From positions 92,548 through 156,547 of the forward strand of contig JACQJR010000001.1 in the NCBI GenBank assembly GCA_016204995.1: a stretch of 64,000 bases of DNA, in the 5' to 3' direction. The notes below the pieces were generated by a model. The model was given only the letters and a program-made list of their open reading frames with translations. It made no database searches and had not been told where the DNA came from. Shown in pieces: positions 1-27,607 of this stretch. The stretch is from Candidatus Microgenomates bacterium. GTDB taxonomy: Bacteria; Patescibacteriota; Microgenomatia; UBA8517; JACQJR01. The translations under genes were made by a program, and so were the position numbers. Numbering within the stretch: the stretch's first letter is position 1; each line of letters begins with the position of its first letter.

Positions 1-179
1 CACATTAATTGTTGCTTGGCAAAAAAAAATTTATCGCCAAATAAATTTTGGGCCTGCACCACCGAAGCGTTAGTCATCATTAAAAATCCCACCACAGTCA
101 AAACCAGAGTTAAAATTACTAAAATTCTATCGGGACTAGCCACAGAAAAACTTATTCTTTTCAAATATGTTTTTGCCAT
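1..179 (-). CDS. ftsW: FtsW/RodA (SEDS) family cell-division protein, N-terminal fragment; gene continues past the window start
   Basis: Minus-strand ATG at 179-177. Translation MAKTYLKRISFSVASPDRILVILTLVLTVVGFLMMTNASVVQAQNLFGDKFFFAKQQLM... has the SEDS-type N-terminal TM helix. Sits directly downstream of murD, as in canonical dcw clusters. The + strand ORF 16..201 in the track is its antisense shadow. Confidence 0.55.
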   Translation of the reverse strand, partial: MAKTYLKRISFSVASPDRILVILTLVLTVVGFLMMTNASVVQAQNLFGDKFFFAKQQLM

Positions 180-208
180 AAGTGGGCTCATGGGCTTATA
201 GGCTATTT

Positions 209-258
209 GGCTCTTAGGTAACCCAAGAGCCTAACTGCCCAATTGCCTAACAGCCTTT
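209..258. repeat. Hairpin repeat element GGCTCTTAGG-taac-CCAAGAGCC-TAACTGCC...GCCTAACAGCC spanning the murD stop codon, in the murD-ftsW spacer
   Basis: 9-bp stem GGCTCTTAG/CCAAGAGCC. The 3' part overlaps the last seven codons of murD (AVRQLGS). Shares GGCTCTT.GG / CCAAGAGCC / TAAC.GCC with the 36591-36650 element. Confidence 0.55.
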
Positions 259-1589
259 TTAAATTGCTCTCCCCTGTCTTTATAATCTTTAAACATATCA
301 AAAGAGGCAGCCGAAGGAGACAAAAGAACTATGTCACCGCTTTCAGCTATTTGGGCCGCATTTTTAATAATTTCGGCCATATTTTTACCGCCGCCAATTA
401 ATTGCCCCTTAAAACCGGCATTTTCTAAATCTTGCTTAATTTGCCCCCCCACCTCTCCCATATAAATAATGGCTTTGACATTTTTCTTAGCTGCCAGTTT
501 TCTGGCCATTTCCGTATAGTCCAAACCTTTACTACTCCCACCCAATATCAAAATTAAAGGCTTACTAAAAGAATTAACTGCCGCCAGGGTGGGGGTCGGA
601 CTGGTCGCAAAAGAGTCGTTATAAAATTTAATCCCCTGGTACTCTCCCGCTAATTCCAAGCGATGTGGTAGACCGGCAAATGTAAATACTGCTTGTTTAA
701 TTCCCTCCACTGTAGCGCCAGCTAGTTTTGCTGCGCAAGTAGCCAAAACAATATTTTCCCAATTATGAGTACCCAGCAATAATAATTTATCTACGCTACC
801 GATTTCCACCGCCTTCTCTACATTTAAAACAATTTTGCCTTTTTTGATATATCCTCCTTTAACTTCTTCTTTAATACTGGCCCAAAAAACCTCTGCTTTA
901 GTTTTTGGGGCAAAACTGCAAGGAGTTTCATAGTCTTTCATTAAAACTACAAAATCTTTTTCTGTTTGAAATCTAACAATATTTTCTTTTGCCTGGACAT
1001 ATTCTTCTCTATTTTTATGCCAATCCAAATGGTCGGTCGTGATGTTCAAGACTACGGCAATATGAGGACTTCTTTCTATATCAATTAATTGAAAGGAGGA
1101 CATTTCCAGTACTACCAGGTCGGACCTCGTCAGATGCGATAATAATTCTAAATATGGCGTGCCAATGTTACCAGCCAGGTAAGTGTTTTTCCCAGAAGCC
1201 TTTAAACACTCATGAATTAAAGTAGCAGTCGTGCCTTTCCCTTTAGTGCCGGTGACGCCGATAATTCTAGCAGGGCATAGTTCAAAAAAAATATTAATGG
1301 CGCTAGTTAGTTTGGCCCCGCTTTTAACTGCTTCTGCAATCTCTGGTAAATCGGGCCGCACGCCTGGAGAACGGACAACGTAATCAAAACCGATTAGGCC
1401 ACCTTTTAAATAATCTGGGCCTGTCACCAGCTCAAACCCCGATTTAATCGGAGCCAGTTGCTCTTTTTCTTTTTGATCAAAAACAGTTACTAACGCTCCG
1501 TTTTGGAGAAGAAACTGCAGCGAATCCTGACCTTCAACCCCCAAACCAATTACTGCTACTTTTTTACCCTGGAATTTCATACTATACAA
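231..1589 (-). CDS. murD: UDP-N-acetylmuramoylalanine--D-glutamate ligase
   Basis: Rossmann-like N-terminus KKVAVIGLGVEGQ, Mur ligase P-loop GVTGTKGKGTT, C-terminal domain LGGSSKG...; dcw context. Confidence 0.9.
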   Translation of the reverse strand: MYSMKFQGKKVAVIGLGVEGQDSLQFLLQNGALVTVFDQKEKEQLAPIKSGFELVTGPDYLKGGLIGFDYVVRSPGVRPDLPEIAEAVKSGAKLTSAINIFFELCPARIIGVTGTKGKGTTATLIHECLKASGKNTYLAGNIGTPYLELLSHLTRSDLVVLEMSSFQLIDIERSPHIAVVLNITTDHLDWHKNREEYVQAKENIVRFQTEKDFVVLMKDYETPCSFAPKTKAEVFWASIKEEVKGGYIKKGKIVLNVEKAVEIGSVDKLLLLGTHNWENIVLATCAAKLAGATVEGIKQAVFTFAGLPHRLELAGEYQGIKFYNDSFATSPTPTLAAVNSFSKPLILILGGSSKGLDYTEMARKLAAKKNVKAIIYMGEVGGQIKQDLENAGFKGQLIGGGKNMAEIIKNAAQIAESGDIVLLSPSAASFDMFKDYKDRGEQFKKAVRQLGS

Positions 1590-1626
1590 TCTTTAAACAA
1601 ATTGTACACTTTTTTGCTAAATTTTC

Positions 1627-3228
1627 CTACGGAGCCACTTCTTGCCAGAGGCGGGAATGGCGGGAGAGGTCGCGGGGGAAAGTGAAGATTAAATCAGGAG
1701 CATATTCAATATACTCGGCCGGTTTAGTGTCATTTTTACCGTTTTGTCTGGTAGGATCCAAATCCCGTTGAAAATTAATGCCTGCCCAAGCAATTAAACT
1801 ACCCCTAACATATAATTGATCATCGCCGCTAGGGTTATGGCCGGTAGAAATAGTACCATTGGTAATAAATAATCCTTCCAGGGCTGGTTGGTTGGGATGA
1901 GAAACAGAGGGATCAATATTAATATTGCCGCTGACAATAGCCATAAAGAAACCCGTACCCTTATTAAGATTTATTTTACCGCCAATAGTTAAATTGCCAT
2001 TCACCAAAAGTATCACTTTTCTATCATTTAAATTTACCGTGGAGTTAATATTTAAATCACCATTACGATAATGCCAAACATAGCCACCCGATTCATAGCC
2101 GGAAATTAAATTGCCACCACTAATCTCCCCATCATTAATAATTGAACCAGAATCCGTAAACACTGCCGGCGGAGCGAGTGGGGCAAACCAGTTATAATTA
2201 AAAAATTTACCTTTATAGAACGATTTACCAATCCAGCCTTTAGAAGAAACACTACCGCTGCCAAAGGAACTATTGCCGCTATAAACAGCTATACCGGGGA
2301 ATCCCCCAGTTCCATCCTCAATCAGCTTTTTACCGGAAGGGAGAGCCGAGCTTATATCCCCATTGCTCCAAAAATCGGCATCCTTCCCCTGCCACCAGGG
2401 AGCCGGTTTAGAGCCTCCCCCGCCACCACAGCTATTACAATTAGTACTGCAACTACTTTCCGTGGTTTGATATGACTCACAAACATTATTAGTGCAACGA
2501 TAGCAAGTAATCGTGGGTCGACCCGCACAATTATCACAGTCAGTATTGCAAGGGTTGTCACTACTATAAGAAGTACAGGTATTATTCTGGCATTCATAAC
2601 AAGTATAATTATCTTGTCCACAGGAATTATCTTGCTGATTACAATCTCCTACATCATAACCGCAAACTCCGCTACCGTCTGACCAGGTATATTCCTTAAC
2701 ATGCTGACTTTTTTTATTACCGCAACATTGATTATATTCCCGATTATAATCACAGGTAGGACCAGGGGGAGGAGGACACCAACCACCACAACCGCCATCT
2801 TCTTGAGTACTATGAACATGGAAACTGCAATCGGTATGCCGATGAACTGTCTGACTCTGATTACACCCAATACATTCGTTATAAGTAGCCTCTTCGCAAG
2901 AAGGAGGAGGAGCGGGACTACAACCACACTCTTCGGCACAAGAAGAATGACCAGCCGCTGGATCGTTAGATTCACCGTTACAAAAATAAACAGGGTCACC
3001 AATCTCATCATAGTAAACACTACAAGTACCACTCCAAGCAATATTACACAATGCACCAGATGGATAAGAACAGCAATAATTATCCCCTGTATAACTACAA
3101 GGAATACCTATATCCTCTGGTCCGCAAGCGAAAATTCTTTGAGAGTTAGCACCGAAAATAACAAATAATAAAACAAAAATCCCTAGGAGGATACTGAAAT
3201 GGGAGAACAGGAGAAGGCTTCTCAACAT
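1627..3228 (-). CDS. Secreted/membrane-anchored cysteine-rich protein with a C-terminal beta-helix-like repeat domain (hypothetical)
   Basis: N-terminal hydrophobic signal/anchor (LLLFSHFSILLGIFVLLFVIF). About 45 Cys in ~230 aa (CxxC, CGC, CNxxC motifs). Gly-rich linker. C-terminal ~250 aa with G/N/I-rich repeats (GNLTIGGKINLNKGTGFF, SGNINIDPSVS) typical of parallel beta-helix. Track ORFs 2352..2621, 2649..3056 and 2701..3168 are shadow ORFs of this low-complexity gene. Confidence 0.6.
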   Translation of the reverse strand: MLRSLLLFSHFSILLGIFVLLFVIFGANSQRIFACGPEDIGIPCSYTGDNYCCSYPSGALCNIAWSGTCSVYYDEIGDPVYFCNGESNDPAAGHSSCAEECGCSPAPPPSCEEATYNECIGCNQSQTVHRHTDCSFHVHSTQEDGGCGGWCPPPPGPTCDYNREYNQCCGNKKSQHVKEYTWSDGSGVCGYDVGDCNQQDNSCGQDNYTCYECQNNTCTSYSSDNPCNTDCDNCAGRPTITCYRCTNNVCESYQTTESSCSTNCNSCGGGGGSKPAPWWQGKDADFWSNGDISSALPSGKKLIEDGTGGFPGIAVYSGNSSFGSGSVSSKGWIGKSFYKGKFFNYNWFAPLAPPAVFTDSGSIINDGEISGGNLISGYESGGYVWHYRNGDLNINSTVNLNDRKVILLVNGNLTIGGKINLNKGTGFFMAIVSGNINIDPSVSHPNQPALEGLFITNGTISTGHNPSGDDQLYVRGSLIAWAGINFQRDLDPTRQNGKNDTKPAEYIEYAPDLIFTFPRDLSRHSRLWQEVAP

Positions 3229-3231
3229 GGT

Positions 3232-3786
3232 TTATTTCTGTAAACGTTTATCGTAAATAAATTGATCACCTAATATTCTGTTTTTATTATCTGCAATAGG
3301 CTTAATAAATAAACTTCCATATAACTGAACGCCTAGTGGGATAACCTCTAGTTTGACAGCCGTAGCGCCACCCTGGCCATTCTCCTCTACGATATAAAAC
3401 TTCGTAGCTATTTTATCGTCACCCCTAGAAAGTCGGTTAGGCACAGTTAAGGTGTGACCACTAGAATCTTGCAAAACAATTTTGTCATCGTCTTTGGCAA
3501 TAAGCTTACCCTTTGCACCAACTCTCCACTCATATAATAAAGGATTTTTCAAAAGCTCCAAGCTAATCGGCAATTCTGGTTCTTTAACTTGTTTTTCTTG
3601 GGTGAATGATCTATTAGAAGGTTGAGCGGGGTTATTAATATCTTTTTGAGGAAGAATATAAGGACTACTAAAAATACCTATTACCAAACCTAGAAAAAGT
3701 GTTAAAAAGGAAATAATTATCTTAAGACTATTATCAGAACCAGTTTTAATTATGTTTGATGATTGTGGAGCAGTTTGATCCATCAA
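3232..3786 (-). CDS. Hypothetical membrane-anchored protein
   Basis: 184-aa ORF with a single N-proximal TM helix (IIISFLTLFLGLVIGIFSS) and a soluble C-terminal domain. Co-oriented and tightly packed with its neighbours. Confidence 0.45.
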   Translation of the reverse strand: MMDQTAPQSSNIIKTGSDNSLKIIISFLTLFLGLVIGIFSSPYILPQKDINNPAQPSNRSFTQEKQVKEPELPISLELLKNPLLYEWRVGAKGKLIAKDDDKIVLQDSSGHTLTVPNRLSRGDDKIATKFYIVEENGQGGATAVKLEVIPLGVQLYGSLFIKPIADNKNRILGDQFIYDKRLQK

Positions 3787-3836
3787 TTCATCATTACAGA
3801 AAATTCTTGTGATGTCAACCTAAAGAATAGAAGTTT

Positions 3837-4580
3837 TTAGGGAAGAGAACATTTGCAAATTCCTTCTAAATTCTTCTGGCCTGTTTCTCTAGACACTGAA
3901 ACATTACCACCTAGTGATTTATTAAGAATATTCAGATAAGAAGATATAAGAGTATCTTTACCAACCCCATTTAATCTTAATGTAAATTGTCTAGTAACAC
4001 CCGGAACCCTTATGGGAGCAGTAGGTGGACCATAAGATCCCTCTTTTGCAGTTAGAGTACCAATGATGGAGTTATTATTAACCACTTGTCCCTCTATATG
4101 TCTGTATGTTCCGTAGTCAATTGTAAGATTGTTCTGATTATGGTCTCCTAAAATTTGAGAATTAAAAAGGCGACCCCCAGCACTGTCAGAAGGATATGGA
4201 TCAAATACAATAAAGAATAATTTGTTACTATCCGGAATGATTCCAACCAGCATATCTCCCTCATCCTTCCCCTCATTCTGCACTTTACCCACATAAACAC
4301 CATAAGGTTCAAATTTTAATTTGTCAGGAGAAACAGTTGGCTCGGGAGAAGGGGTAGAAGTTGAAGTTGATGTTGATGTGGGCTCTGGAGTATTAGTATA
4401 TATTGGTTCTGGTGTGGATGGTTCAGCCTGCACAGAAGCAGGAATAGACTTATTCAGCCTAGAAAGGGCTGCGCCCACGCCTCCGGCTACACCAGCTGCA
4501 CCTAGTGTTCCCAATACTAATTTTTTTAAAAAATTACGGCGTGATATTTCTCTTTCCATATTTTCAACTAGGTTTACCAA
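3837..4580 (-). CDS. Hypothetical exported protein with a twin-arginine-like signal and Thr/Pro-rich linker
   Basis: N-terminus SRRNFLKKLVLGTLGAAGVAGG resembles a Tat signal (RRxFLK). Followed by a TPEPTSTSTSTSTPSPEPT linker and a ~170-aa C-terminal domain of unknown function. Confidence 0.5.
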   Translation of the reverse strand: MVNLVENMEREISRRNFLKKLVLGTLGAAGVAGGVGAALSRLNKSIPASVQAEPSTPEPIYTNTPEPTSTSTSTSTPSPEPTVSPDKLKFEPYGVYVGKVQNEGKDEGDMLVGIIPDSNKLFFIVFDPYPSDSAGGRLFNSQILGDHNQNNLTIDYGTYRHIEGQVVNNNSIIGTLTAKEGSYGPPTAPIRVPGVTRQFTLRLNGVGKDTLISSYLNILNKSLGGNVSVSRETGQKNLEGICKCSLP

Positions 4581-5538
4581 ACATTACCACACAAAGCAAC
4601 ATTTGAATAGGTTCTTCGAATTGTGGTCTAAAGTAATTTTTTTCTAACGCGCAACCAGAAGCTATTTGTGTCCAATCGCCCATTATTACATCTCTATGTC
4701 CAGCACTTGATAACCATTGATTTACACGCTGAGATAATACAGTAAGCCAATCACTTTGAGTTTTTAATAAATCTAGTCTAAGTAATGTATTAAAGCCTAT
4801 TATTTCGCTAGCCCTCCCTTTGTAGCCCTCCTCCGCCGCTCTACTATTGGGTGTACCCTTATATGAATGGGGGTCTCCGGCCAAAGTGGTCCATGAAAGA
4901 GTAGGATCAGCACCAGGGTGATCAAGCCATTTTATATCATGTAAATATAAAGCATATTTTTCAGCTGTTGATTGCAAAATTGAAGATTGCTCTAAAGGTG
5001 GAAGACCATTTTTTTGACGGGCTTGATTGATTAAATTAGACACTATTTTAGATTTACTAACATCTACTTGAAAAAAAAGCTCTTGACTAACATCTATTTC
5101 TGGTTTAGCGGTAAGTACAACTTTAGGCACGACAATTTCGGGAACTGCAGTAGCGGTGGGAGGGACTGCTGTGCGGGTAGGAATGGCAGGGGTTCTTGTA
5201 GGGGGCACTGCTGTTTCGGTAGGCACTTCCGTAGGTACCTCGGTAGGAGTGGCCGTGGCAGTAGCGGTCGCAGTGGCAATTTCTGTGGCTGTCGCAATAG
5301 GAACAATAGTTGGTGTATCTATGGGAAGAGGAGGAGCAGGCTCGGTAATTGGAATATTACCCATCGGGGGAGCTTCAGTGGGTGTCCAGGCATTGGCCTG
5401 AACTCGCAAGACTACACCAGTCAAAGCAGCAGCCGCAGCCGCAGCCAAAGTGGTGGCAGCGGCCAAAATTGGAATTTTGTGCTTTCTAACAGCTTGAGGA
5501 ATGGGTTGATTTTCGGCTGTAGCCATACTCTCCTCCAT
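4564..5538 (-). CDS. Membrane-anchored CAP/SCP (PR-1-like, YkwD-type) domain protein with a T/A/P-rich repeat linker
   Basis: TM helix ILAAATTLAAAAAAALTGVVL. Repeat linker (ATATEIATATATATATPTEVPTEVPTE). The C-terminal domain carries the CAP-domain hallmark HRDVIMGDWTQIASGCA (cf. HYTQVVW..GCA) and an upstream NQARQKNGLPPL motif. Track ORFs 5068..5544, 5094..5306 and 5156..5401 are shadows of the repeat region. Confidence 0.6.
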   Translation of the reverse strand: MEESMATAENQPIPQAVRKHKIPILAAATTLAAAAAAALTGVVLRVQANAWTPTEAPPMGNIPITEPAPPLPIDTPTIVPIATATEIATATATATATPTEVPTEVPTETAVPPTRTPAIPTRTAVPPTATAVPEIVVPKVVLTAKPEIDVSQELFFQVDVSKSKIVSNLINQARQKNGLPPLEQSSILQSTAEKYALYLHDIKWLDHPGADPTLSWTTLAGDPHSYKGTPNSRAAEEGYKGRASEIIGFNTLLRLDLLKTQSDWLTVLSQRVNQWLSSAGHRDVIMGDWTQIASGCALEKNYFRPQFEEPIQMLLCVVMFGKPS

Positions 5539-5540
5539 AT

Positions 5541-5837
5541 TTAATTATACCATATTTCTGCACTTTTGGCTTTAAATATGCTGGCCTTGGGATGGATTTC
5601 TTCTAAAGCAGCAATTCTTTCTTCCTTATCAGAAACTTGACCTAAACCAACTTCATATTCTATCTTCCTTGTTTCCAAATCTCCTATTAACTCATCCATT
5701 TTGTCATAAAATTCCTTCTTAGTAGGTAGATGATTAATCTTTTCGTTGATATCATCAAGCTCCTGTTTAACCTCAACCTTTACGGTTTCCTGCACAATTT
5801 CTTGAATTTTGATTAAGTCATTTTGAGTTAGTGCCAT
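5541..5837 (-). CDS. Small charged coiled-coil protein (hypothetical)
   Basis: 98-aa ORF, K/E-rich with heptad-like periodicity, no TM. Abuts the CAP-domain gene with a 2-bp gap. Confidence 0.35.
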   Translation of the reverse strand: MALTQNDLIKIQEIVQETVKVEVKQELDDINEKINHLPTKKEFYDKMDELIGDLETRKIEYEVGLGQVSDKEERIAALEEIHPKASIFKAKSAEIWYN

Positions 5838-5897
5838 ACTTCTATTAAAGCTAGTGAAACATCTTCTGTCAATCTTTAAAGATACTTCAGCCTTACA

Positions 5898-5935
5898 CCT
5901 CGTAGGTTTCGTGCGTACGACCTACGAGGTCAAAC
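5898..5935. other. Strong hairpin (10-bp stem CCTCGTAGGT...ACCTACGAGG) in the 290-bp gap downstream of mraY
   Basis: Perfect inverted repeat read directly from the sequence. No U-tract on either strand, so it is not a canonical intrinsic terminator. Confidence 0.3.
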
Positions 5936-6130
5936 AAAATATTAAAAGTTATCTAGACAAAACATCCGACGATCGTCGTGTATTTTGTCAATTTAATCTC
6001 TCTATTCCGGAATGGGGGAGCATGAGCCCCTCAATTTTTCTCCACAGCTCTTGTGTAACCTCGTCAACACTACCAGAATTATCAATTTTTATATCGGCGT
6101 TTTTTATTACTTCCACTATTCCAGCTTCTC

Positions 6131-7171
6131 TCATATTAGCGCTAGCCATAAACCGAAAATAGCCAGGAGTGCCCCCGCCAGCCAGGCCCGCATGACAATT
6201 TTGGGCTCTTCCCATTTAATAGCCTGCAGCAGCAGGTGAAATGGGGCAATGGGTAATACGGGATGGCCTAAAAATTTACGAGCCCCAATTTGAATAAAAC
6301 TGGAAAAAGCTTCAGCGATAAAAATTCCGCTAATTACAGCCACGGCAAAAATTTTCCCGGTCAAAAGACCAATAACAGCTAGGGTCGCTCCAAAAGCCAG
6401 TGCCCCAGTGTCCCCCATAAAAATCCGGGCCGGCCAAATATTAAAGTATAGAAAGGCAAATAAAGCACCAATCCAGAGGGCAATAAATATAGACAGGGGG
6501 GTATCAAAAACAGTTCCGGCAATAATCCATAAAGCAAATAAACAAATAAGCAAAAGTCCACCGGCCAAACCATCTAAACCATCGGTGATATTAACAGCAT
6601 TGGTAAATGCCACCATCACAAAGGCGGCAAAAGGTACATACCACCAGCCTAAATGGAATAGATTTTCCATAATCGGAATATGCACAATATCAATCTTTAA
6701 ATTGTTCCACATTAAAAATCCTATCGCGAGAGCAATGATCCATTGAGCAGCAAATTTCCATCTGCGGCCAATACCAAATATATTGCCCATTTGACCAGCC
6801 TTTGGTTTGCCAAAAAACTTCATTAAATCATCATAAAATCCCAGCAGTCCAAAACCGATAAAAGTCAAGAAAATAATTCTGACTTCGTCTACTAAAGGAT
6901 AAGCCGAAGAGATGGGTATGCCGAGCAAGGAAAAAGCGGGAAATAGTACTACAAATAATAATGACACTACGCTAATGATCAAGAGGCCTCCTCCCACTGG
7001 TGTACCCGCTTTCCAGTCATGCATTTTGTCAAAAAAGGGAATTTTCTTTTTATTTTTAGGGGCTTCGTGCCTGCGGGTAAACTTTAGCCGATAAAGCAAA
7101 TTAATAAAGGGAATGATTAAAATACTGGTGATGATGAAGGAAAATATTAATAGTCCTAAAGATAGTGCCAT
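6131..7171 (-). CDS. mraY: Phospho-N-acetylmuramoyl-pentapeptide transferase
   Basis: Ten-TM polyprenyl-phosphate transferase. Carries NAVNITDGLDGLAGG (MraY/WecA DGxDGL motif) and a DDLMKFFG aspartate motif. dcw context. Confidence 0.9.
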   Translation of the reverse strand: MALSLGLLIFSFIITSILIIPFINLLYRLKFTRRHEAPKNKKKIPFFDKMHDWKAGTPVGGGLLIISVVSLLFVVLFPAFSLLGIPISSAYPLVDEVRIIFLTFIGFGLLGFYDDLMKFFGKPKAGQMGNIFGIGRRWKFAAQWIIALAIGFLMWNNLKIDIVHIPIMENLFHLGWWYVPFAAFVMVAFTNAVNITDGLDGLAGGLLLICLFALWIIAGTVFDTPLSIFIALWIGALFAFLYFNIWPARIFMGDTGALAFGATLAVIGLLTGKIFAVAVISGIFIAEAFSSFIQIGARKFLGHPVLPIAPFHLLLQAIKWEEPKIVMRAWLAGALLAIFGLWLALI

Positions 7172-7180
7172 ATAATAAAA

Positions 7181-7290
7181 TTAACCTAATTGCTCTAATT
7201 GACCTAATTTCTAAATAATGACCAAGATTAGAAATTTTTCCTGATTTGGGATTTATTTAGGTAAATTAGGAATTAGAATAATTAGAAATT
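7181..7290. repeat. AT-rich intergenic inverted-repeat element built from TTCTAATT/AATTAGAA units (copy 1, murA-mraY spacer)
   Basis: ttaacctaattgctctaattgacctaatttctaa...attagaaatt...aattagaataattagaaatt. The left and right arms are reverse complements. The same unit recurs at 12684-12766, 18388-18500 and 30988-31078. Confidence 0.6.
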
Positions 7291-7295
7291 TTCGT

Positions 7296-8555
7296 TTATT
7301 CTACTCTTGTTATTTCTGCGCCTAATTTGGCAAGTCTTCCATCTAAATCCTCGTAACCCCGATCAATAATTTCAGCATGTTCAATAGTGGACTCACCATC
7401 AGCACCAAGAGCTGCTAACACTAGAGCCGAACCTGCTCTAATATCATTAGAGGGAATATTATCCGCCCGTAGTTTAGTCGGCCCATTCACCACGATCCGA
7501 TGTGGATCGGCAATGGTGATGTCCGCCCCCATTTTGATTAAATGATCCACGAAAAATATCCGCCACTCATACATCCAATCGTGACAGATCACAGTTCCTT
7601 TAGACTGCGTTGCCAAAACAATGAAGGGGCTCATTAAATCAGTGGGAAAACCAGGCCATGGCCTGGTTTGGAAAGTTTTGCGGTTTGCCGCTAGCTCTCC
7701 CGGCATAATTTCCAGTTGATTTTCACTCGTCTTATATTGCACTCCTAAATGTCCTAAATAAGCCAAGATCATTTTTAGATTTTTAGTAGTAACTTCATTA
7801 ATCGTGATATGGCCGCCAGTTAAGGCCGCCGCGATAGCAAAGGTGCCTACGTCAATATGGTCATCAATTACTCGATGAGTAGTGCCAATAAGTTCCTTTT
7901 TGCCGGTAATATTTAAAATATTAGTGCCTCCGCCGATAATATCAGCTCCAGTTTTACTTAAAAACTGCGCTAAATCCTGAATATGAGGCTCTGCCGCCGC
8001 ATCTTCAATCACTGTATTACCTTCAATATTAGCCCCTAAAATCAATCCCATGGCGGTAGCCGTCACCGAAGCTTCTTCTAAAAAGATCTCGGCCGGTTTT
8101 AAATTAGCCCCATCTAACTCAAAAACCCCATTACGCTCATCAATAGTTACCCCGAATTCATGAAGCAAACTAAAATGTGTATCCAGCAGACGTTCGCCGA
8201 TAGAATCTCCGCCCGGAGGAGTAATGGTGGCTTTTTTAAAGCGGGCTAGGAGCGGAGCCGCCAAAAGTACTGAAGCCCGGAATTTGCTCATTAGGGTTGG
8301 ATCTGTCTCCCATTTAGAAAGGCCGGAAGGATCAATTTTTAAAATGTTCGTACCTACACCCTCCACTTTTACTCCCAAACCTTCCAAAATTTGGGCCATA
8401 AACATCACATCCCGAATAATAGGCACATTGGTAAGGGTAACCGGGGAATTAGTCACCAGTGAGGCTGCCATCAGAGGAAGAGCGGCATTCTTGTTGCCGG
8501 CGGCGCTAATTTCACCTGTCAGGGCCTTACCGCCCTTAACCTTAAATTGAGCCAT
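7296..8555 (-). CDS. murA: UDP-N-acetylglucosamine 1-carboxyvinyltransferase
   Basis: N-terminus MAQFKVKGGKALTGEISAAGNKNAALPLMAASL matches the EPSP-synthase-fold MurA signature; length 419 aa. Confidence 0.9.
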   Translation of the reverse strand: MAQFKVKGGKALTGEISAAGNKNAALPLMAASLVTNSPVTLTNVPIIRDVMFMAQILEGLGVKVEGVGTNILKIDPSGLSKWETDPTLMSKFRASVLLAAPLLARFKKATITPPGGDSIGERLLDTHFSLLHEFGVTIDERNGVFELDGANLKPAEIFLEEASVTATAMGLILGANIEGNTVIEDAAAEPHIQDLAQFLSKTGADIIGGGTNILNITGKKELIGTTHRVIDDHIDVGTFAIAAALTGGHITINEVTTKNLKMILAYLGHLGVQYKTSENQLEIMPGELAANRKTFQTRPWPGFPTDLMSPFIVLATQSKGTVICHDWMYEWRIFFVDHLIKMGADITIADPHRIVVNGPTKLRADNIPSNDIRAGSALVLAALGADGESTIEHAEIIDRGYEDLDGRLAKLGAEITRVE

Positions 8556-8575: not shown

Positions 8576-9748
8576 CTACAGTTTTTCCGCCATTTTGACC
8601 AGCTCGTCAAATTTAAGTTTTCTGGAGGCCTTAAGAAGCATCACTACATTTCTATCCAAGCTATCTTTAATAGCCTTTTTTAAAATGTTTTCGCTAGGAA
8701 CAATAATAATTTGGTTATTTTTCATACCGCCGTTTCTTGCCCCTTCCACCAAAAATGGAGCAAATTGGCCAAAGCAGATTAAATTATCTATCTTTTTTTT
8801 AGCTACCCATTCCCCTACTTCTTGATGTCCCTTCTCTGTATAATCTCCCAGTTCCAACATATCTCCTAAAACCGCTGCAGTTTTTTTACCTTTACCAACC
8901 TCTATTAAGGTATCTATGGCCGCTTTGGCTCCTAAAGGACTACTATTATAAGTATCATCCAGAATGATGGCACCGCTTTTGGTAGTAACTGGTTGCAGCC
9001 GGTGAGGGGTTGGAATAAAACTTTCTAAACCCAACTTAATATCTTCAGGCTCTACATTAAAGGACAAACCGACAGCGGCGGCAGCCAAAGCTGCATAAAC
9101 AAAATGGGCCCCTAAAACTGGTAGAGTAATTTCAATTAATTGTTGATCAAAATTTAAGGTGAAAGTGGTTTGTAAATTAATAACTTTAATGTCTTGCGCT
9201 TTTATCTCACAACCGCGCCCTAAACCATATAAAATAACTTTAGCTTTAGTTTTTTCTGAAATCTGCTTAACTAACCGGTCATCTCCATTAACGATAGCTA
9301 AACCCTTTTGGGAAAGACCGGCAATTAATTTGCCCTTTTCGCGAGCAACTCCCTCAATATCACCAAAAAATTCTGTGTGGGTCCAATAAATATTAGTCAA
9401 AATGCCGATATCTGGTTTAGAAAGGGCTAGATAAAAATCCATATCCCCCTTATGGTCTACTCCCATTTCCAAAACTAGAACTTTAGTACCAGGGGTCGTC
9501 TTAAGAATAGTGGTAGGAATATTGTAAACCGGATCAATATTGGCGTAAGAGACACGTATTTTATATTTTTGCGACAACACAGAAGCAACCATTTCTTTAG
9601 TGGTAGTTTTTCCCACGCTGCCAGTAATGCCGATTACTTTTATGTCAGTAAATTTCTTTAGAAAAAATAAATAATTTTTTGCCAGTTGTCTTTTAACGGG
9701 ATGGTAAATTAGTTTTTTAATCATACTTTTAGAAAAGTTTTGGCCCAC
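8576..9748 (-). CDS. murF: UDP-N-acetylmuramoyl-tripeptide--D-alanyl-D-alanine ligase (short form)
   Basis: Mur ligase P-loop VIGITGSVGKTTTKEM and C-terminal AVLGDMLELG..GHQEVG motif typical of MurF. Shorter than usual at the N-terminus. Confidence 0.75.
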   Translation of the reverse strand: MGQNFSKSMIKKLIYHPVKRQLAKNYLFFLKKFTDIKVIGITGSVGKTTTKEMVASVLSQKYKIRVSYANIDPVYNIPTTILKTTPGTKVLVLEMGVDHKGDMDFYLALSKPDIGILTNIYWTHTEFFGDIEGVAREKGKLIAGLSQKGLAIVNGDDRLVKQISEKTKAKVILYGLGRGCEIKAQDIKVINLQTTFTLNFDQQLIEITLPVLGAHFVYAALAAAAVGLSFNVEPEDIKLGLESFIPTPHRLQPVTTKSGAIILDDTYNSSPLGAKAAIDTLIEVGKGKKTAAVLGDMLELGDYTEKGHQEVGEWVAKKKIDNLICFGQFAPFLVEGARNGGMKNNQIIIVPSENILKKAIKDSLDRNVVMLLKASRKLKFDELVKMAEKL

Positions 9749-10455
9749 ATATCAATTTCGCCCGCTATGGCTGCCGGCCGATGATAAGGCAAACTGTGTC
9801 CAATATTTTTAAATACCTTCAGAATAGACTTGGAAATTTGAGCTTTGGTTTGGTAAGCCAATGCTGGCGGTAAAATTTTATCACTTCCTCCCCAAAGTAT
9901 CAGCACTGGCATGGCAAGTTTTCCTAAATTATAGTAATTATCTCCTGAACGGATGCTGCGTAAAATAAGCCTATTCCAAAAACCACTAGGCATTTCATAA
10001 TAGTGCGACAAAACCCACTTTCTAATATTAGGAAACCAGATTAACATACCACCTAATAATTTATAAAAAAAGTGTTTTAGTGATGATGGAGAGGAAACAG
10101 TAGAGGAGCAAATTACTAATCCCCTTACATTTTTATCACCTAAGGCTAGCGCTGTGGCCACTCTACCACCAAAAGAATGACCAAAAACTATATAAGGCAG
10201 ATTTCCCCATTTGTCTTTGACAAAATTACTAATCACAGTCTTATAACCATCGGTTGTTAAAGGAATCTCCGGCTTAAACGATTTGCCAAAACCAGGTAAA
10301 TCAACCGCTAAAACATGCCATCCTTTTTTGACTAGATCACGAGCTAAAGGCCTAAACTTTTCTTTATCCACTGCCCAACCATGAATCAACACAATATTTT
10401 TCTCTCCCTGCCTGCGCAGGCAGGCCTCGCCTAATTCAAAATAACTTAATTCCAC
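9721..10455 (-). CDS. Alpha/beta-fold hydrolase embedded in the dcw operon
   Basis: IVLIHGW (HG oxyanion motif), GHSFGG nucleophile elbow, C-terminal His. Its N-terminal extension carries an in-frame copy of the 18-bp palindrome (ACLRRQ). Confidence 0.7.
   Translation of the reverse strand: MELSYFELGEACLRRQGEKNIVLIHGWAVDKEKFRPLARDLVKKGWHVLAVDLPGFGKSFKPEIPLTTDGYKTVISNFVKDKWGNLPYIVFGHSFGGRVATALALGDKNVRGLVICSSTVSSPSSLKHFFYKLLGGMLIWFPNIRKWVLSHYYEMPSGFWNRLILRSIRSGDNYYNLGKLAMPVLILWGGSDKILPPALAYQTKAQISKSILKVFKNIGHSLPYHRPAAIAGEIDMWAKTFLKV
10407..10424. repeat. 18-bp perfect palindrome CCTGCCTGCGCAGGCAGG, copy 1 (in-frame in the hydrolase CDS, encodes ACLRRQ)
   Basis: Exact 18-mer read from the sequence. 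The palindrome has no stop codon in any frame. Confidence 0.8.
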
Positions 10456-11354
10456 ACATCCCCTTCAAAACCAATTAATTGAACTTCTGGTTCAAGAGCA
10501 ATCCCAAATTTTTCCTGCACTTTTTGTCTATAAACTTTCGCCAGTTTCACGAAATCTGCCGCCGTGCCACCGCCACTATTGATAAATAAATTACCATGCC
10601 AGGTAGCAATTTCTACCCCATCTTCCCGCGCTCCTTTGGCCCCGACTTCTTCCAATAACCAACCTGCCGGAATTTTACCAAACATAATCTTATCCGCCGG
10701 AATTCTGTCTAAAATATCCTGCGTTAATTTAGCCGCTTCTACATTTTTGAAAAAACTGCCGGGACAAGCGAGACCCGGATGATATCTAATTAATCTCTGT
10801 TGCATAATTTCTTGTGACGTTTTAATTAATTGAACACTATCTGCCGTGGCCGTTATATCAAATGCCGCCTCTAAAATAATTTCTCCAGTTTCTTTAAATC
10901 TGCTATGACGGTAAGATAAATTACATTCCGCGCGAGTGTATTTTTTTAGTTGATCCTCATGTGAATCGTATATCTGTACCCATAAAATTTTATCGGCAAT
11001 AGTTTGGCCGTAAGCTCCAGCATTGCCATAAATAGCTCCGCCAATTGTGCCGGGAATACCAACTAGCTTCTCAAAACCAGCTTTGCCTTTTTCATTAGCC
11101 CATTCCACAAGTGTTGCCAAATCAGTCCCCGATCCCACCGCCTCATTGATGGCAGTATAGGAATTTTTGATGACCAGTCCTTCAAAACCGCTGTCTGCCA
11201 CCAATAAATTACTGCCTCCGCCGATCACCAAGTAGGGCATTTGACCAGTTTGAGCTTTTCTAATTTCTTCTACCAGCCCTTCCTTAGTCTTTGCCTCTAC
11301 CAATTCGCGAATATGGCCGCCAATTTTAAGAGTAGTGATTTCGGAAAAGTTCAT
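10446..11354 (-). CDS. murB: UDP-N-acetylenolpyruvoylglucosamine reductase
   Basis: FAD-binding N-terminus TLKIGGHIREL...YLVIGGGSNLLVAD and the MurB C-terminal domain. Start overlaps murC stop by 4 nt. Confidence 0.88.
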   Translation of the reverse strand: MNFSEITTLKIGGHIRELVEAKTKEGLVEEIRKAQTGQMPYLVIGGGSNLLVADSGFEGLVIKNSYTAINEAVGSGTDLATLVEWANEKGKAGFEKLVGIPGTIGGAIYGNAGAYGQTIADKILWVQIYDSHEDQLKKYTRAECNLSYRHSRFKETGEIILEAAFDITATADSVQLIKTSQEIMQQRLIRYHPGLACPGSFFKNVEAAKLTQDILDRIPADKIMFGKIPAGWLLEEVGAKGAREDGVEIATWHGNLFINSGGGTAADFVKLAKVYRQKVQEKFGIALEPEVQLIGFEGDVWN

Positions 11355-12664
11355 TTAATTAAATGATATATTTGAAAAATATCGCCCGCACCTAATGTTA
11401 AAACTATATCACCAGGTTTAACATTAGTCTTAATCCATGATAGTATCGCCTTTTTGTCACCCGTATAAAAAGTATTGGTATGATTTTTCTTAATCTCTTC
11501 TGTTAATAATTCTCCTGACATACCTAAATCATCTGTTTCGCGAGCTGAAGCATATATATCCATAATTGCTACCATATCGGCATCACTAAAACTTCTTGAA
11601 AATTCAGATAGTAACGTCTTGGTTCGGGAATAAGTATGCGGTTGAAAAATTGCTACCAACCTCTTTTCTGGAAAATTTTGCTTAACTGCCGAAAGTACTG
11701 ATTTAATTTCGTGGGGAGTATGGGCATAATCATCATAAAAATCTGCTCCACGAAATTTCCCCATTTTTTCAAAACGGCGTCTCGTTCCAGTAAATTTTAC
11801 CAGTCCCTTTTTAATTTTTTCCTCACTTATATCGTAAAATCTAGCCACTTCGGCGGCTGCCGAGGCGTTTAATTGATTGAAATCTCCCAACACTTTAAGT
11901 TTAAAGTCACTCAAAGTATAATTTTTTACTGGGATAGATAAATTTTTAATTATTTCCATTATATTTTGATTATTTTCATTGGCAATTAATAATCCATCTG
12001 GTGGAACTTTGGCAAAAAATTCGCTAAAAGCTTTTTTGGTATCTTCTATGGTTGGATAAATATCCGGATGGTCGTGTTCAATATTAGTCGCTACTATCAC
12101 TTTGGGTGATAATAAAGAAAAACGTGGTCTATTATCTACCCCCGGTGAAATAGCAAATTCATCCGCCTCGGCCACAAACACTTTTCCTTCTTTATCATAT
12201 TTACCTGGTGCGCCTAATGAGTGGATATCACCAACACCTATTGCAAAGGAGGGGTGTAATCCGGCCGCCGCAAAAATATTAGCAATCATGGCCGAAGTAG
12301 TTGATTTACCACCCACCCCGCAAACGGCGATTGTTTCTTTACCACTTGCAAATTCTGCTAGAGCTTCAGCGTGAGTCATAACCGGAATTCCCATTTCGCG
12401 TGCCGCCACCACTTCGGGATTATTTAAACCACCATGAGCTCCAGTAGTAATTAATAATTCTGGTTTAGGCTTTAAATTTTCTTTATTAAAACCAATTTTC
12501 CAGGAAATTCCTCGCCTTTTTAGGGTTTCATCAGTCACAAACACCTCTGCTATATCACTACCAGTCACCTGAATTCCCAAATCTTGAGCACACAAGGCCA
12601 AAGCAGTCATACCGACTCCTTTAATCCCTGTAAAGTGGATAGTATGTAAGTTTTTTATATTCAT
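11351..12664 (-). CDS. murC: UDP-N-acetylmuramate--L-alanine ligase
   Basis: HFTGIKGVGMTALA (MurC N-terminal HFIGIGGxGMS-type motif), P-loop CGVGGKSTTSAM, DxYAHTPHE C-terminal motif. Confidence 0.88.
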   Translation of the reverse strand: MNIKNLHTIHFTGIKGVGMTALALCAQDLGIQVTGSDIAEVFVTDETLKRRGISWKIGFNKENLKPKPELLITTGAHGGLNNPEVVAAREMGIPVMTHAEALAEFASGKETIAVCGVGGKSTTSAMIANIFAAAGLHPSFAIGVGDIHSLGAPGKYDKEGKVFVAEADEFAISPGVDNRPRFSLLSPKVIVATNIEHDHPDIYPTIEDTKKAFSEFFAKVPPDGLLIANENNQNIMEIIKNLSIPVKNYTLSDFKLKVLGDFNQLNASAAAEVARFYDISEEKIKKGLVKFTGTRRRFEKMGKFRGADFYDDYAHTPHEIKSVLSAVKQNFPEKRLVAIFQPHTYSRTKTLLSEFSRSFSDADMVAIMDIYASARETDDLGMSGELLTEEIKKNHTNTFYTGDKKAILSWIKTNVKPGDIVLTLGAGDIFQIYHLIK

Positions 12665-12683: not shown

Positions 12684-12766
12684 CCAATTTCTAATTGTTC
12701 TAATTTCTAATCAAATCTCAATTCCCAAAATTTTAGGTCAATTAGGTTAATTAGAAATTAGAAATT
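12684..12766. repeat. AT-rich intergenic inverted-repeat element (copy 2, murE-murC spacer)
   Basis: Left arm aatttctaattgttctaatttctaat, ~30-bp spacer, right arm attaggttaattagaaattagaaatt. The arms are near-perfect reverse complements, giving a MITE/REP-like long hairpin. Confidence 0.6.
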
Positions 12767-14079
12767 TTATCCCCCATTCTTTTTACCCCTCCTTTCAGCG
12801 ATACTCTGGCTGCTTCCTGATCTGACCAGGGGTATTCCATATTATCAATGGCCATAGATCTTTCGTGGCCTTTGCCGCAAAGAGCAACAATATCACCCGG
12901 GGCAGCTAATTTTTGAATTGCCAAGGCGATCGCTTCACCTCTTTCCGGTACTTTAACCACCCATTTCCCGCCTTTTCTCCAATTAGTCTGTCCGTCCCAA
13001 ACTTGAGCCTCTTGCCTAATACCGCGCGTTATATCATCAATAATCCGTTCCACATCTTCTGTCCGGGGATCATCAGCCGTCAGTATAATAAAATCAGCCA
13101 ACTTTGCGGCCGCCTTCCCCATCAAAGGACGCTTTCCTAAATCCCGTTGACCAGGACAGCCAAATGCCACAATTAGTTTACTCTTAGGAGGTTTTATTTT
13201 ACCCAGGGCTGTCAGTAAATTTTCCAAAGATCCCGGCGTATGAGCAAAATCCACTACCACAGTAAATTTTTTCCCTTCATTTATTACTTCCATTCTACCC
13301 CTTAAACCGGCAAAACTACTAACTGCCTCTCTAATTTTATCCCAAGCCACATTTAAACTTCTCACTGCTCCAGCCGCCGCTAAAATATTCGCCGCGTTAT
13401 ATTCACCGATCAATTTAGTCTGGAAATTCATACTTTTACCTTCTGCCTTAACCTCAAATTCCATTCCACCAGGAGTTAAGTTGACACTTTTATATACGAT
13501 CATAGCATGTTTTGATACATCATAAGAACCATAAGAGATGATTTTAGCATCACTACTAGCTTTTTGTTGTAAATAATCAAACGATGGGTCATCTTGATTT
13601 AACACTGCCACTTTAACTCCCCTTAATAATTTTGCTTTAGCCTCCCGATATCTCTCAAAAGTTTTATGATAATCAAGGTGTTCATGGGTGATATTAGTTA
13701 CTACTCCTATCTTAAAATTACCACCCAAGACCCGATGCTGGTCTAAACCATGCGAAGTGGTTTCTATCACGACGTGAGTGACACCTCTCTGCCGAGCTTG
13801 AGCAAGGATTGATTGCATAACCCGCGGATCAGGAGTAGTCACATGCAAACCGGTATCAATTTCTTCACCATCTAAAAACGCCCCTAAAGTAGAAATTACG
13901 GCTGTTTTATAGCCAGCAATACTTAAAATATGACCGATTAAATGAGTGGTGGTGGTTTTGCCATCAGTACCTGTTACTCCAATGACGGTCAAATCGCGAG
14001 CCGGATAGCCATTTTTAATAACCTGCCAAACAGCTGTTAAAAGATGCTGAAAATTCCGCCACCGGCCGTAGAGATTCAT
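12751..14079 (-). CDS. murE: UDP-N-acetylmuramoyl-L-alanyl-D-glutamate--2,6-diaminopimelate (or L-lysine) ligase
   Basis: VIGVTGTDGKTTTTHLIGHIL P-loop and Mur ligase C-terminal domain. Positioned after ftsI, as in canonical dcw order. Confidence 0.88.
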   Translation of the reverse strand: MNLYGRWRNFQHLLTAVWQVIKNGYPARDLTVIGVTGTDGKTTTTHLIGHILSIAGYKTAVISTLGAFLDGEEIDTGLHVTTPDPRVMQSILAQARQRGVTHVVIETTSHGLDQHRVLGGNFKIGVVTNITHEHLDYHKTFERYREAKAKLLRGVKVAVLNQDDPSFDYLQQKASSDAKIISYGSYDVSKHAMIVYKSVNLTPGGMEFEVKAEGKSMNFQTKLIGEYNAANILAAAGAVRSLNVAWDKIREAVSSFAGLRGRMEVINEGKKFTVVVDFAHTPGSLENLLTALGKIKPPKSKLIVAFGCPGQRDLGKRPLMGKAAAKLADFIILTADDPRTEDVERIIDDITRGIRQEAQVWDGQTNWRKGGKWVVKVPERGEAIALAIQKLAAPGDIVALCGKGHERSMAIDNMEYPWSDQEAARVSLKGGVKRMGDKISNF

Positions 14080-14091: not shown

Positions 14092-15837
14092 TCATTGTGA
14101 AGGACTAATTCCTAAGTAAGGGAAAAGGTCGCGAGCGATCGCAAACCAGGTGGGGGCGGCGGTTTGCGAGGCCCAGGGAGAAGAAGAAGGCTCCTGCAAA
14201 CTGACCAGCATCACAAATTGGGGATTTTGAGCCGGGGCAAAACCAATGAAAGAGGCGACAGTTTTTTTGCTGTAGTGACCAGCTAAGGGAACTTGGGCTG
14301 TCCCAGTTTTTCCGGCCACCGCAAAACCGGGAATAGCCAATCGTCTGGCTTCCCCGAGTTGGACTGCTTTGGTCATCATCTCGCTAATTTCACTGGCGGC
14401 TTTTTCACTAATTACCCTACCTTCATCGCGAACGGGAATAGATTGCGACCAGCCATCCCCGGTAATTTTATCTACCACTCGCGGGATCGGTAAAATGCCA
14501 TGATTGGCAATGGCCGCGGCTGCCCGAGTAAATTGAATAGGCGTCACCGCCACTCCCTGGCCAAAAGCAGAAGTAGCTAAATCCACGCTCGTCCACGCAC
14601 TTAATGGCCGTAGAGTTGGACTTTCTTCTTCCTGCAGATCAATACCAGTAATTCGTCCTATACCAAAACGACTAAGATAATCCAACAGTTTTTCTTGACC
14701 CAAACGTCTCACAGTAAAAACCATACCAGTATTATCGGAATGGATAATAGTCTCGGCCATAGTGGTATTAGGAAAATATTTATTGTCCCCCGTATGAATT
14801 TGGTATTCTGCTACCGAAACCGGCCCAGAACAGTTATCGCACTTGGTCTTGGGAGTAACTGCTCCGCTATCAAGAGCTGCAGCCATCACCAAAATCTTAA
14901 AAATTGACCCTGGTTCAAAAGCGTCGCTGACAATTGGATTTTTAAATAAAGTTGGATCAGATTGATTGTATTTGGCGGCATCATAGGAAGGCAAACTAGC
15001 CGCCGCCAGAACTTCACCCGTTGGCTTCATCACCACTACACTGCCGCCTTTAGCCCCATATTTGTCCATTGCCTCCTGTAAATGTTTAACCGCGGTATAC
15101 TGAATTGTTCTATCAATAAAAGTCACAATATCCAACCCTTTTTGCGCCCCTATTTCGCTCAATAGCCCAAAAGGAATGGGGTTACCCCGTAAATCTTTTT
15201 CTTCTCGCCTGATACCCTTTTTGCCAGACAAAGTGACATCATAAAATCCTTCCAAGCCAAAATAACCTTCTTCCCCGGTTTCGCTTTTACCGACAAAACC
15301 CAATAAATGGGCTGCCATTGTCCCTTCGGGATAGTATCTGGACTCTTGAGCCGTCCAACCTAAATCATCAAAATGCAACCCGTTTATTTTATTTTTGGAC
15401 TCGTCAGACACTTTATCAGCCAGCGATACCCAACGTAAATCTTTATTTGCCAAAGCTTTTTTCAGTTTAGCCTCTTGAGTGGCCACCAAAACAACTCTGG
15501 CGCTACCCGTAGCTAACTGATCTTCGTTATCAGCCAGAAGAGAGGCTAAAATATGAGCTAAATCATCTTTGTTTTCTTTAATTTTTTGGGGATCAGTCCA
15601 CATCTGCCAGTTAATTTGGGAGGTGGCTAGCGGCGCTCCGTCACTAGCTAAAATTGCCCCCCGATGCGCACTAATTTCTACACTGGTTACGTGTTGGGCC
15701 CGAGCGTATTTTGATAACTCTCCATTTTTCAGAATCTGCCAGTAGAAAAGTCGTAAAATTAAGAGACTAAAGCAAATCAAAAAAAGAATATTTATCAGCC
15801 GAAAGCGACTATTAAACAATGATAACTCTTTGACCAT
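14092..15837 (-). CDS. ftsI: Penicillin-binding protein / peptidoglycan D,D-transpeptidase
   Basis: N-terminal TM anchor. Transpeptidase motifs SxxK (GSIFK), SxN (HSDN) and KTG (AGKTGTAQ). Follows ftsL-like gene. Confidence 0.88.
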   Translation of the reverse strand: MVKELSLFNSRFRLINILFLICFSLLILRLFYWQILKNGELSKYARAQHVTSVEISAHRGAILASDGAPLATSQINWQMWTDPQKIKENKDDLAHILASLLADNEDQLATGSARVVLVATQEAKLKKALANKDLRWVSLADKVSDESKNKINGLHFDDLGWTAQESRYYPEGTMAAHLLGFVGKSETGEEGYFGLEGFYDVTLSGKKGIRREEKDLRGNPIPFGLLSEIGAQKGLDIVTFIDRTIQYTAVKHLQEAMDKYGAKGGSVVVMKPTGEVLAAASLPSYDAAKYNQSDPTLFKNPIVSDAFEPGSIFKILVMAAALDSGAVTPKTKCDNCSGPVSVAEYQIHTGDNKYFPNTTMAETIIHSDNTGMVFTVRRLGQEKLLDYLSRFGIGRITGIDLQEEESPTLRPLSAWTSVDLATSAFGQGVAVTPIQFTRAAAAIANHGILPIPRVVDKITGDGWSQSIPVRDEGRVISEKAASEISEMMTKAVQLGEARRLAIPGFAVAGKTGTAQVPLAGHYSKKTVASFIGFAPAQNPQFVMLVSLQEPSSSPWASQTAAPTWFAIARDLFPYLGISPSQ

Positions 15838-24141: not shown

Positions 24142-24143
24142 AT

Positions 24144-27449: not shown

Positions 27450-27577
27450 GAATTAAGTATAGCAAATTTACCTTAATTGCTTTAACAATTCAAATCGCTT
27501 GAACATACCTCCAAGGTCTCTCCTTGGAAACTCACAGGAGTGCTCTTGCTGGTTAATCTAATAAAAGTAATTTTATC

Positions 27578-27607
27578 TTGTAAATAAGAATAAAAATTGG
27601 TAAAAAT
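27578..27607 (+). promoter_or_regulatory. Candidate sigma70-type promoter TTGTAA-N17-TAAAAAT immediately upstream of the Bro-N/DinD-like gene (leaderless or near-leaderless start)
   Basis: ttgtaa at 27578-83, 17-bp spacer, taaaaat at 27601-07. Candidate starts are ATG 27608 or GTG 27612. Confidence 0.3.

Follow-up and report, generated by a model that had tools for sequence, protein, structure and literature searches.

One described counterpart of the locus reported here is the canonical division and cell wall (dcw) gene cluster. The locus lies in a 64,000-nt stretch of a Candidatus Microgenomates metagenome-assembled genome (contig JACQJR010000001.1), hereafter called the window, and all positions are counted within it unless another locus is named. 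The flanks of the locus form a complete one-strand dcw cluster, mraZ-rsmH-ftsI-murE-murC-murB-murF-murA-mraY...murD-ftsW-murG. The difference from the canonical cluster is a set of five open reading frames (ORFs) between mraY and murD, named A to E in transcription order, which have no counterpart in any dcw cluster examined (B–E: 0/80 relatives). The encoded proteins recall other described systems: B the CAP/SCP/PR-1 superfamily, C the neisserial/Pasteurellaceae barrel lipoproteins (NHBA, fHbp, TbpB, HpuA) and hemophilin, and E the DUF3494/IBP-1 ice-binding fold and the solenoid of Thermus thermophilus ComZ. The CAP superfamily includes sterol and fatty-acid binders. In ComZ the solenoid forms a receptor domain located at the tip, and the structure most closely related to this solenoid is that of an ice-binding protein (PMC6561018).

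An initial annotation of the window had read A–E as a cassette of extracytoplasmic proteins integrated into the dcw operon and perhaps assembled at the septum. The five ORFs lie where it had placed them, on the minus strand between mraY and murD:

6131-7171, minus strand: mraY, upstream flank of the insertion; PF00953, E 1.5e-32; product 76% identical to the MraY of locus L006
5541-5837, minus strand: A, 98 aa; charged, likely helical or coiled-coil
4564-5538, minus strand, probable start at the second ATG (5526): B, membrane-tethered CAP/SCP-domain protein with a T/A/P-rich stalk
3837-4580, minus strand, NCBI start at 4559 (240 aa): C, protein with a twin-arginine translocation (Tat) signal, T/P/S stalk and beta-barrel
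3232-3786, minus strand, ATG at 3783: D, bitopic membrane protein with an N-terminal transmembrane (TM) segment
1627-3228, minus strand: E, 533 aa; secreted, with a signal peptide, a Cys-rich stalk and a C-terminal beta-solenoid
231-1589, minus strand, probable ATG at 1580: murD, downstream flank; MurD-like N, Mur_ligase_M and Mur_ligase_C domains

We propose, with a probability of about 0.6, that B-C-D-E is a self-contained, portable operon of membrane-tethered extracellular proteins, present in the dcw cluster as an accessory insertion and not as division machinery. A scan for MraY, with one genome per GTDB species, gave 80 Microgenomates-type mraY loci with up to 10 kb on each side. These loci were searched by tblastn with all window proteins and by profile hidden Markov models (HMMs) of B, C, D and both halves of E. 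No ORF of B, C, D or E was found within 10 kb of mraY in any of the 80 loci. The closest relative, L006, has the order murE-murC-murB-hydrolase-murF-murA-mraY-murD, with 188 bp between mraY and murD. These two results together indicate that the module is not a dcw component, and the idea of a dcw-integrated module, or of its assembly at the septum, found no support in the comparison. As far as the data go, its dcw position is a lineage-specific accident.

The cassette is thus not conserved between mraY and murD, yet the module is conserved outside dcw. Module loci were found by an exhaustive HMMER search with C, followed by inspection of the neighbouring genes with profile HMMs of B, C, D and both ends of E. 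The order [CAP]-C-D-E occurred in at least 10 deeply diverged metagenomic lineages, on contigs of uncultivated Microgenomates- or CPR-like bacteria (CPR, candidate phyla radiation), and in all of them outside dcw. The gene content of the loci was as follows:

L091: CAP, C-like, D-like and a 967-aa E-like protein
L096: CAP, C, D and the start of E
L100 and L101/102: CAP, C, D
L086 joined to L094 (99% identical overlap): C, CAP, D, E
L087/88/89, L090 and L092: C, D, E
L095 and L098: C, D
L097: D, then a protein with the E N-terminal motif and a different C-terminus

The identities to the window proteins were 40% for B, approximately 29% for C, 31–38% for D and 27–33% for the C-terminal domain of E. 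Twelve D proteins were 28–61% identical in pairwise comparison, and the MreB proteins of two carrier contigs were 46% identical. These values indicate that the module is old and spread across deep lineages. Judged by sequence and gene order, B-C-D-E is a genuine conserved module. It is an apparently undescribed operon whose parts are of known kind, namely a CAP domain, a stalked small barrel and a solenoid-headed adhesin-like protein. The database entries for the module proteins are all named 'hypothetical protein'. The literature search returned no paper on DUF7305, none linking DUF3494 with the CPR, and nothing relevant on cysteine-rich surface adhesins of Patescibacteria. The earlier suggestion of an undescribed surface module was retained for B–E and given up for A, which stands outside the module.

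CPR/Patescibacteria are considered to depend on other cells and to live in attachment to them. To our knowledge, almost nothing is known of the attachment surface proteins of CPR bacteria outside Saccharibacteria. The present analysis defines a recurrent four-gene surface operon, in which the C and D families carry no database annotation and E is adhesin-like, with a disulfide-rich stalk and a solenoid head. For Microgenomates, B–E provide specific candidates for proteins that attach the cell or capture ligands, with protein–protein interactions that can be tested. They are a useful lead for CPR surface biology and not evidence for a new division structure.

The module neighbourhoods elsewhere were unrelated, and the sites differed between lineages. 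At L091 (4808-6882 of that locus), a DsbA-like gene, a DsbD-like gene and a gene for a 188-aa Cys-rich protein lie directly upstream of CAP-C-D-E. The DsbA/DsbD neighbours fit disulfide-rich extracytoplasmic proteins, and they hint at a dedicated disulfide-forming system for the module proteins in this locus.

The initial annotation had taken all five products to be extracytoplasmic. This held for B (TM), C (Tat), D (TM) and E (signal peptide), but not for A, which has no hydrophobic segment. B is a TM-anchored CAP/SCP protein with a T/A/P linker, as had been described. Its residues 168–299 matched PF00188 with 32.6 bits (cutoff 21.1, E 1.6e-7). A single N-terminal hydrophobic segment (TM window at residues 21–28) is followed by a T/A/P stalk of approximately 110 aa. 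The second ATG at 5526 is preceded by GGAGGAG, and a 320-aa form is present in the database. Over 252 aa, B shared 40% identity with the product of the CAP gene adjoining the C homologue in L086. The protein resembles the CAP/SCP/PR-1 superfamily in passing the PF00188 gathering score and in a weak match to Borrelia BB0689 and YkwD, and it scored below the YkwD subfamily cutoff (TIGR02909, 22.5 vs. 171 bits). It differs from the superfamily in its tether, formed by the TM segment and the stalk, and in its place in a fixed four-gene operon.

The Tat signal assigned to C was also confirmed. The motif SRRNFLK stands at residues 13–19, and TIGR01409 was matched with 22.3 bits (cutoff 16.7). The exhaustive HMMER search with C returned 14 remote relatives (E 6e-12 to 9e-4, 25–32% identity), which share a domain of approximately 160 aa ending in CxCxLP. 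No match to C was found in Pfam, NCBIfam, the PDB sequence families, PHROG or PADLOC, and a word-indexed search of 5.8 billion protein clusters returned only self matches for C and D. The AlphaFold2 model of C, built with eight relatives, reached a predicted local distance difference test (pLDDT) score of approximately 90 for residues 80–240. The predicted fold is a closed barrel of approximately eight strands with two C-terminal helices. Its top structural matches were ligand-capturing surface lipoproteins and hemophores (NHBA, fHbp, TbpB, HpuA; hemophilin) at 10–13% identity, and weaker matches were avidins, YceI and a putative lipid-binding protein. The 8-stranded barrel is thus shared with the neisserial/Pasteurellaceae lipoproteins and hemophilin, whereas the window C has a Tat signal, no lipobox Cys, two C-terminal helices and the CxCxLP end. 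A lipobox-like Cys occurs in the C-family members P0051, P0052, P0053, P0059 and L096. An RR motif occurs in three C-family members; the homologues P0050 and L096 have one, and so has the window C. The window C has no Cys before residue 242 and so lacks a lipobox.

A distant C-family gene was also observed outside any module, at L103 (1394-5195 of that locus), beside a phage-type integrase gene, an AbiJ-like gene and an IS21-type transposase pair. This neighbourhood indicates that C-like barrels also travel with mobile DNA.

D proved to be TM-anchored, as had been described, with one strong N-terminal TM segment (window at residues 18–28) ahead of a conserved external domain of approximately 120 aa. 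It had no Pfam, NCBIfam or PDB match, and no PHROG or PADLOC family covers it. All 12 D homologues adjoin C and/or E homologues, and D lies directly upstream of E in every D-E locus, with a spacer of 3–10 bp.

E was likewise borne out as a Cys-rich protein with a beta-helix-like domain. It has a Sec-type signal peptide, 34 Cys in residues 35–267 and no anchor of its own, and its N-terminal Cys motif is conserved in the module-linked E proteins. The AlphaFold2 model of the C-terminal domain (residues 268–533), built with 38 homologues, had a pLDDT of 91.8 and is predicted to be a triangular beta-solenoid with a flanking alpha-helix. The window E ends in W-Q-E-V-A-P, and all members of the E-domain family end in W-(K/R/Q)-E-(V/I)-x-P. 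Residues W261, E263 and P266 of the domain are at least 90% conserved and sit in its sole low-pLDDT part, the C-terminal tail. A conserved end in a low-confidence tail would be expected of a docking peptide.

The predicted solenoid and flanking helix resemble the DUF3494/IBP-1 ice-binding fold and ComZ. E differs from both in its Sec-type signal peptide, its Cys-rich stalk and its invariant W-x-E-V-A-P end, and it has no pilin N-terminus. No sequence match to DUF3494 was found for E or any of its 39 relatives. E had no N_methyl match and no pilin-type N-terminus; only the solenoid resembles ComZ. The score of E against DUF7305 (PF23981) was 13.7 bits (cutoff 27), and 7 of the 39 relatives gave weak matches (best E 2e-4). 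Searched against the PDB sequences, the D and E profiles gave nothing informative. What E shares with its 39 nearest database relatives is only the C-terminal domain; the N-terminal Cys motif is missing from these relatives, and their genes do not adjoin C or D genes. In the wider E family, Big_2, Ig-like, fn3, TSP1, SdrD-B or invasin-type domains stand ahead of the same C-terminal domain, an arrangement typical of adhesins. The NCBI gene model of E (474 aa) starts 59 codons late. The stretch that it omits, 3051-3228, encodes the signal peptide and a portion of the N-terminal Cys motif, and the 533-aa ORF is to be preferred.

Gene A is coupled to B here and lies outside the conserved module. 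A sequence scan of A showed no hydrophobic window and no export signal, Pfam gave only sub-threshold matches, and a scan of viral contigs found no relatives. Its sole relative in the 80 mraY loci, searched by tblastn and profile HMMs, was a 64-aa ORF in L012. The other module loci have no A gene at this position, and the gene before the module differs from locus to locus. A 112-aa coiled-coil ORF beside the L087 module matched A with a pairwise E of 0.002; this match was weak and driven by composition and was not counted as homology.

The cassette had also been called tightly packed. This is true of A-B-C (gaps of 2–4 bp or overlap), D-E (3 bp) and E-murD (46 bp), with 53 bp between C and D. 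It is not true of mraY-A, where a 293-bp gap contains a gene remnant, hairpins and a promoter-like site. The features of the junctions were as follows:

5988-6134, minus strand: 48-aa ORF, coaE-like 3′ remnant; best PDB sequence match 2if2
5956-5989 and 5897-5930, minus strand: two stem-loops, read from the sequence and by palindrome scan
5844-5872, minus strand: promoter-like site before A, TTGACA-17 nt-TTTAAT, ending 6 nt before the ATG of A; read from the sequence
3790-3818, minus strand: promoter-like site before D, TTGACA-17 nt-(TG)AATGAT, 10/12 with the TG extension, ending 6 nt before the ATG at 3783
5870-5880, minus strand: 11-nt direct repeat TTTAAAGATTG, left copy bordering the A–E block
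1587-1597, minus strand: right copy of the same repeat, 6 nt upstream of the murD ATG (1580)
6691-6701, minus strand: third copy of the same repeat, inside mraY

The only PDB sequence match of the 48-aa ORF was the dephospho-CoA kinase 2if2 (residues 160–190 of 204), which is weak (E 0.056) and positionally consistent. The ORF shows the motif ADxxIDNSGS and is annotated by NCBI as a 53-aa hypothetical protein. Its sequence has the appearance of a coaE relic, a sign that the mraY/A junction may have been rearranged before. The hairpin at 5956-5989 abuts the stop codon of this ORF, and that at 5897-5930 has a stem of 10–14 bp. Neither has a U-tract, and both may be termination or stabiliser structures. 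The predicted fold of the mraY-A gap RNA had an energy of −79.2 kcal/mol (z −3.85), and none of 200 shuffles was equally stable. The Rfam scan of positions 1-8000 matched no family.

The promoter-like site before A was missed by a stricter promoter rule, its −10 hexamer having no A at position 2. Neither A (5837) nor D (3783) has a Shine-Dalgarno sequence at its start; the second ATG of B is the only start with a clear one. A promoter that ends 6 nt before an ATG has the spacing expected for leaderless mRNAs. Intrinsic-terminator-like sites were found on the minus strand neither inside the cassette nor after its end (including 1627-1580, between E and murD), which makes read-through into murD-ftsW-murG plausible. 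The initial annotation had held that adjacency of mraY and murD in relatives, with a promoter and terminator belonging to the cassette, would mark an unrelated insertion. We found the adjacency in L006, and hairpins and a promoter-like element at the locus, but no terminator between E and murD.

The repeat TTTAAAGATTG occurs three times in the window against 0.27 copies expected, all on the minus strand and within approximately 5 kb. Since the third copy lies inside mraY, target-site duplication is possible at most. A–D are mildly atypical in GC content at third codon positions (GC3, 0.25–0.29 vs. approximately 0.35) and likewise in codon usage. The spacer downstream of mraY showed no similarity when aligned with that of the closest relative. 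The coaE-like remnant, the hairpins, the promoter-like site and the flanking repeats are junction scars of rearrangement.

The dcw order is fluid in the Microgenomates clade. The direct succession of mraY and murD, which had been taken as canonical, is not the rule there: murD directly follows mraY in 7 of the 80 loci, and ftsW does so (≤250 bp) in 53. The ftsW gene lies downstream of mraY on the same strand in 79 of the 80 loci, and the remaining locus has no downstream room. It follows murD in 7–8 loci, murI and murD in approximately 7, and an unknown gene with a pyridoxal phosphate (PLP) enzyme and an ATP-grasp enzyme in 5–6. The mraY-ftsW spacing is approximately 5.95 kb here, compared with a maximum of 4.0 kb among the 79 measurable relatives. 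The inserts of the relatives at this junction are cytoplasmic enzymes (murI, or PLP with ATP-grasp). The clade's dcw cluster thus tolerates inserts at the mraY/ftsW junction, so that a place in this essential operon is insufficient to infer function.

Two of these inserts were observed in some detail. An ORF of 230–276 aa between mraY and murD carries an N-terminal FDSGxGG motif, from which we take it to be of the glutamate racemase (murI) type. It was found in L044, L055, L057, L067, L074 and L082, which are Chisholmbacteria/Collierbacteria-type loci. In L013 (11032-14254 of that locus), L047, L053, L061 and L077, the mraY-ftsW interval contains an unknown gene of 235 aa together with genes for a PLP-dependent and an ATP-grasp enzyme. 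The 21-kb locus has no detectable murD, and the peptide stem may here be served by an alternative ligase arrangement.

In the arrangement we propose for the B-C-D-E operon, B, C and D would stand at the cell surface on stalks or a TM anchor. E would form the distal part, a disulfide-rich stalk with a solenoid head, held by its anchored partners (D, and/or C and B). D is the prime candidate for the holder of E because the two are always adjacent. E may dock through its flexible C-terminal W-x-E-V-A-P tail or through the N-terminal Cys motif. The likely role of such a complex would be to adhere or to capture ligands on the outside of an ultra-small CPR cell, and not to take part in peptidoglycan synthesis. 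The module, together with the unrelated gene A, was probably inserted co-directionally into the mraY-murD spacer, just upstream of murD, in this lineage only.

Several points weigh against this proposal. Of the four carriers with a downstream flank, a sample too small to test, three have wall or shape genes downstream of the module on the same strand, which could mean a link to the wall. The genes are murD-ftsW-murG here, mreB in L091 (287 bp away) and mreB-mreC in L087 (3.6 kb away). The physical complex among B–E is a prediction, and the adhesive role is read from fold and architecture. In the Foldseek search of E against PDB, the ice-binding and ComZ structures ranked top without significance (E ≥ 0.1, TM-score 0.30–0.37). 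Several relatives have a lipobox-like Cys that the window C lacks, and what would keep this C at the surface is not explained. Genes for Tat, Dsb, Lgt or sortase were not found in the window, where a TatA-like motif was sought and no TatC-specific search was made. The insertion is not explained by an integrase or transposase, and TTTAAAGATTG recurs inside mraY.

The cassette might instead be a dcw-integrated envelope module, co-expressed with the division and wall genes and acting or assembling at the septum or growth zone. Its co-orientation with the operon, the 46-bp E-murD gap with no terminator-like site, and the need for transcription of murD-ftsW-murG downstream would agree with this, as would mreB downstream of the module in the two deeply diverged carriers L091 and L087. 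An M23 peptidase gene also lies 1.6 kb upstream of the module in L096. We nevertheless regard such a role as unlikely. None of the 80 related dcw loci carries the module, even the closest one with identical order; neither dcw nor mre genes adjoin the module in L096 and L097, although long contexts were available for only 4–5 loci. The structured 293-bp gap and the promoter-like sites before A and D also set the cassette apart, and none of B–E resembles a peptidoglycan enzyme or divisome part. A similarly low chance is given to the idea of a CPR-specific extracytoplasmic wall-growth accessory that is preferentially placed upstream of, and co-transcribed with, peptidoglycan or shape genes, with a functional dcw position. 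If the weak association with mreB and dcw neighbourhoods were true, it would suggest that wall growth in ultra-small bacteria involves an extracytoplasmic partner not yet known. The proteins could also serve ligand or nutrient capture in place of adhesion, the CAP domain and the C barrel, which is similar to lipoproteins that bind transferrin, haemoglobin or haem, scavenging a host-derived molecule such as a lipid and E giving contact. The top and weaker structural matches of the C barrel and the confirmed CAP domain of B point in this direction. By analogy this function is conceivable but doubtful, the 8-stranded barrel being a generic fold and no transporter gene being linked to the module in any locus.

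The accessory operon proposed here should also be distinguished from a mobile-element or prophage remnant that carries surface genes as cargo and was integrated with an 11-bp target duplication. The repeat TTTAAAGATTG does border A–E on both sides, GC3 and codon usage are slightly atypical, and different lineages have different sites. Such an origin is quite improbable, as no integrase, transposase or phage gene occurs in 1627-6130, PHROG gave no significant match except the CAP domain, PADLOC gave none, and the viral-contig scan with A was empty. The third copy of the repeat inside mraY and the lack of inverted terminal repeats argue in the same direction. A chance run of unrelated lineage-specific or over-called ORFs was considered as well, given that the word-based search returned only self matches for C and D and that A is almost without relatives. 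The probability of this is very small: the C homologues found by HMMER have B, D and E homologues as neighbours, in an order kept across at least 10 lineages, and C and E have high-confidence AlphaFold2 models. The conserved synteny refutes chance for B–E and leaves it conceivable for A only.

Every gene between approximately 230 and 17,450 is on the minus strand. The remaining genes of the dcw cluster were as follows, and ftsW and then murG follow murD in a Logan contig that is 100% identical over the E gene:

17004-17447, minus strand: mraZ
16124-17014, minus strand: rsmH
14092-15837, minus strand: ftsI
12751-14079, minus strand: murE
11351-12664, minus strand: murC
10446-11354, minus strand: murB
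9721-10455, minus strand: alpha/beta hydrolase gene, between murB and murF
8576-9748, minus strand: murF
7296-8555, minus strand: murA

The alpha/beta-hydrolase gene adjoins murF within dcw both in the window and in approximately 20 related Microgenomates loci (L006-L083 range). It is a conserved non-canonical dcw member.

A large surface-polysaccharide locus occupies 23503-38401 on the minus strand. It contains genes for a sugar transferase, a nucleotidyl transferase, at least seven glycosyltransferases, a Wzy-like protein and a hexapeptide acyltransferase. The BRO-N domain is typical of phage or mobile DNA, and a single plus-strand gene with this domain (27612-28448) breaks the polysaccharide locus.

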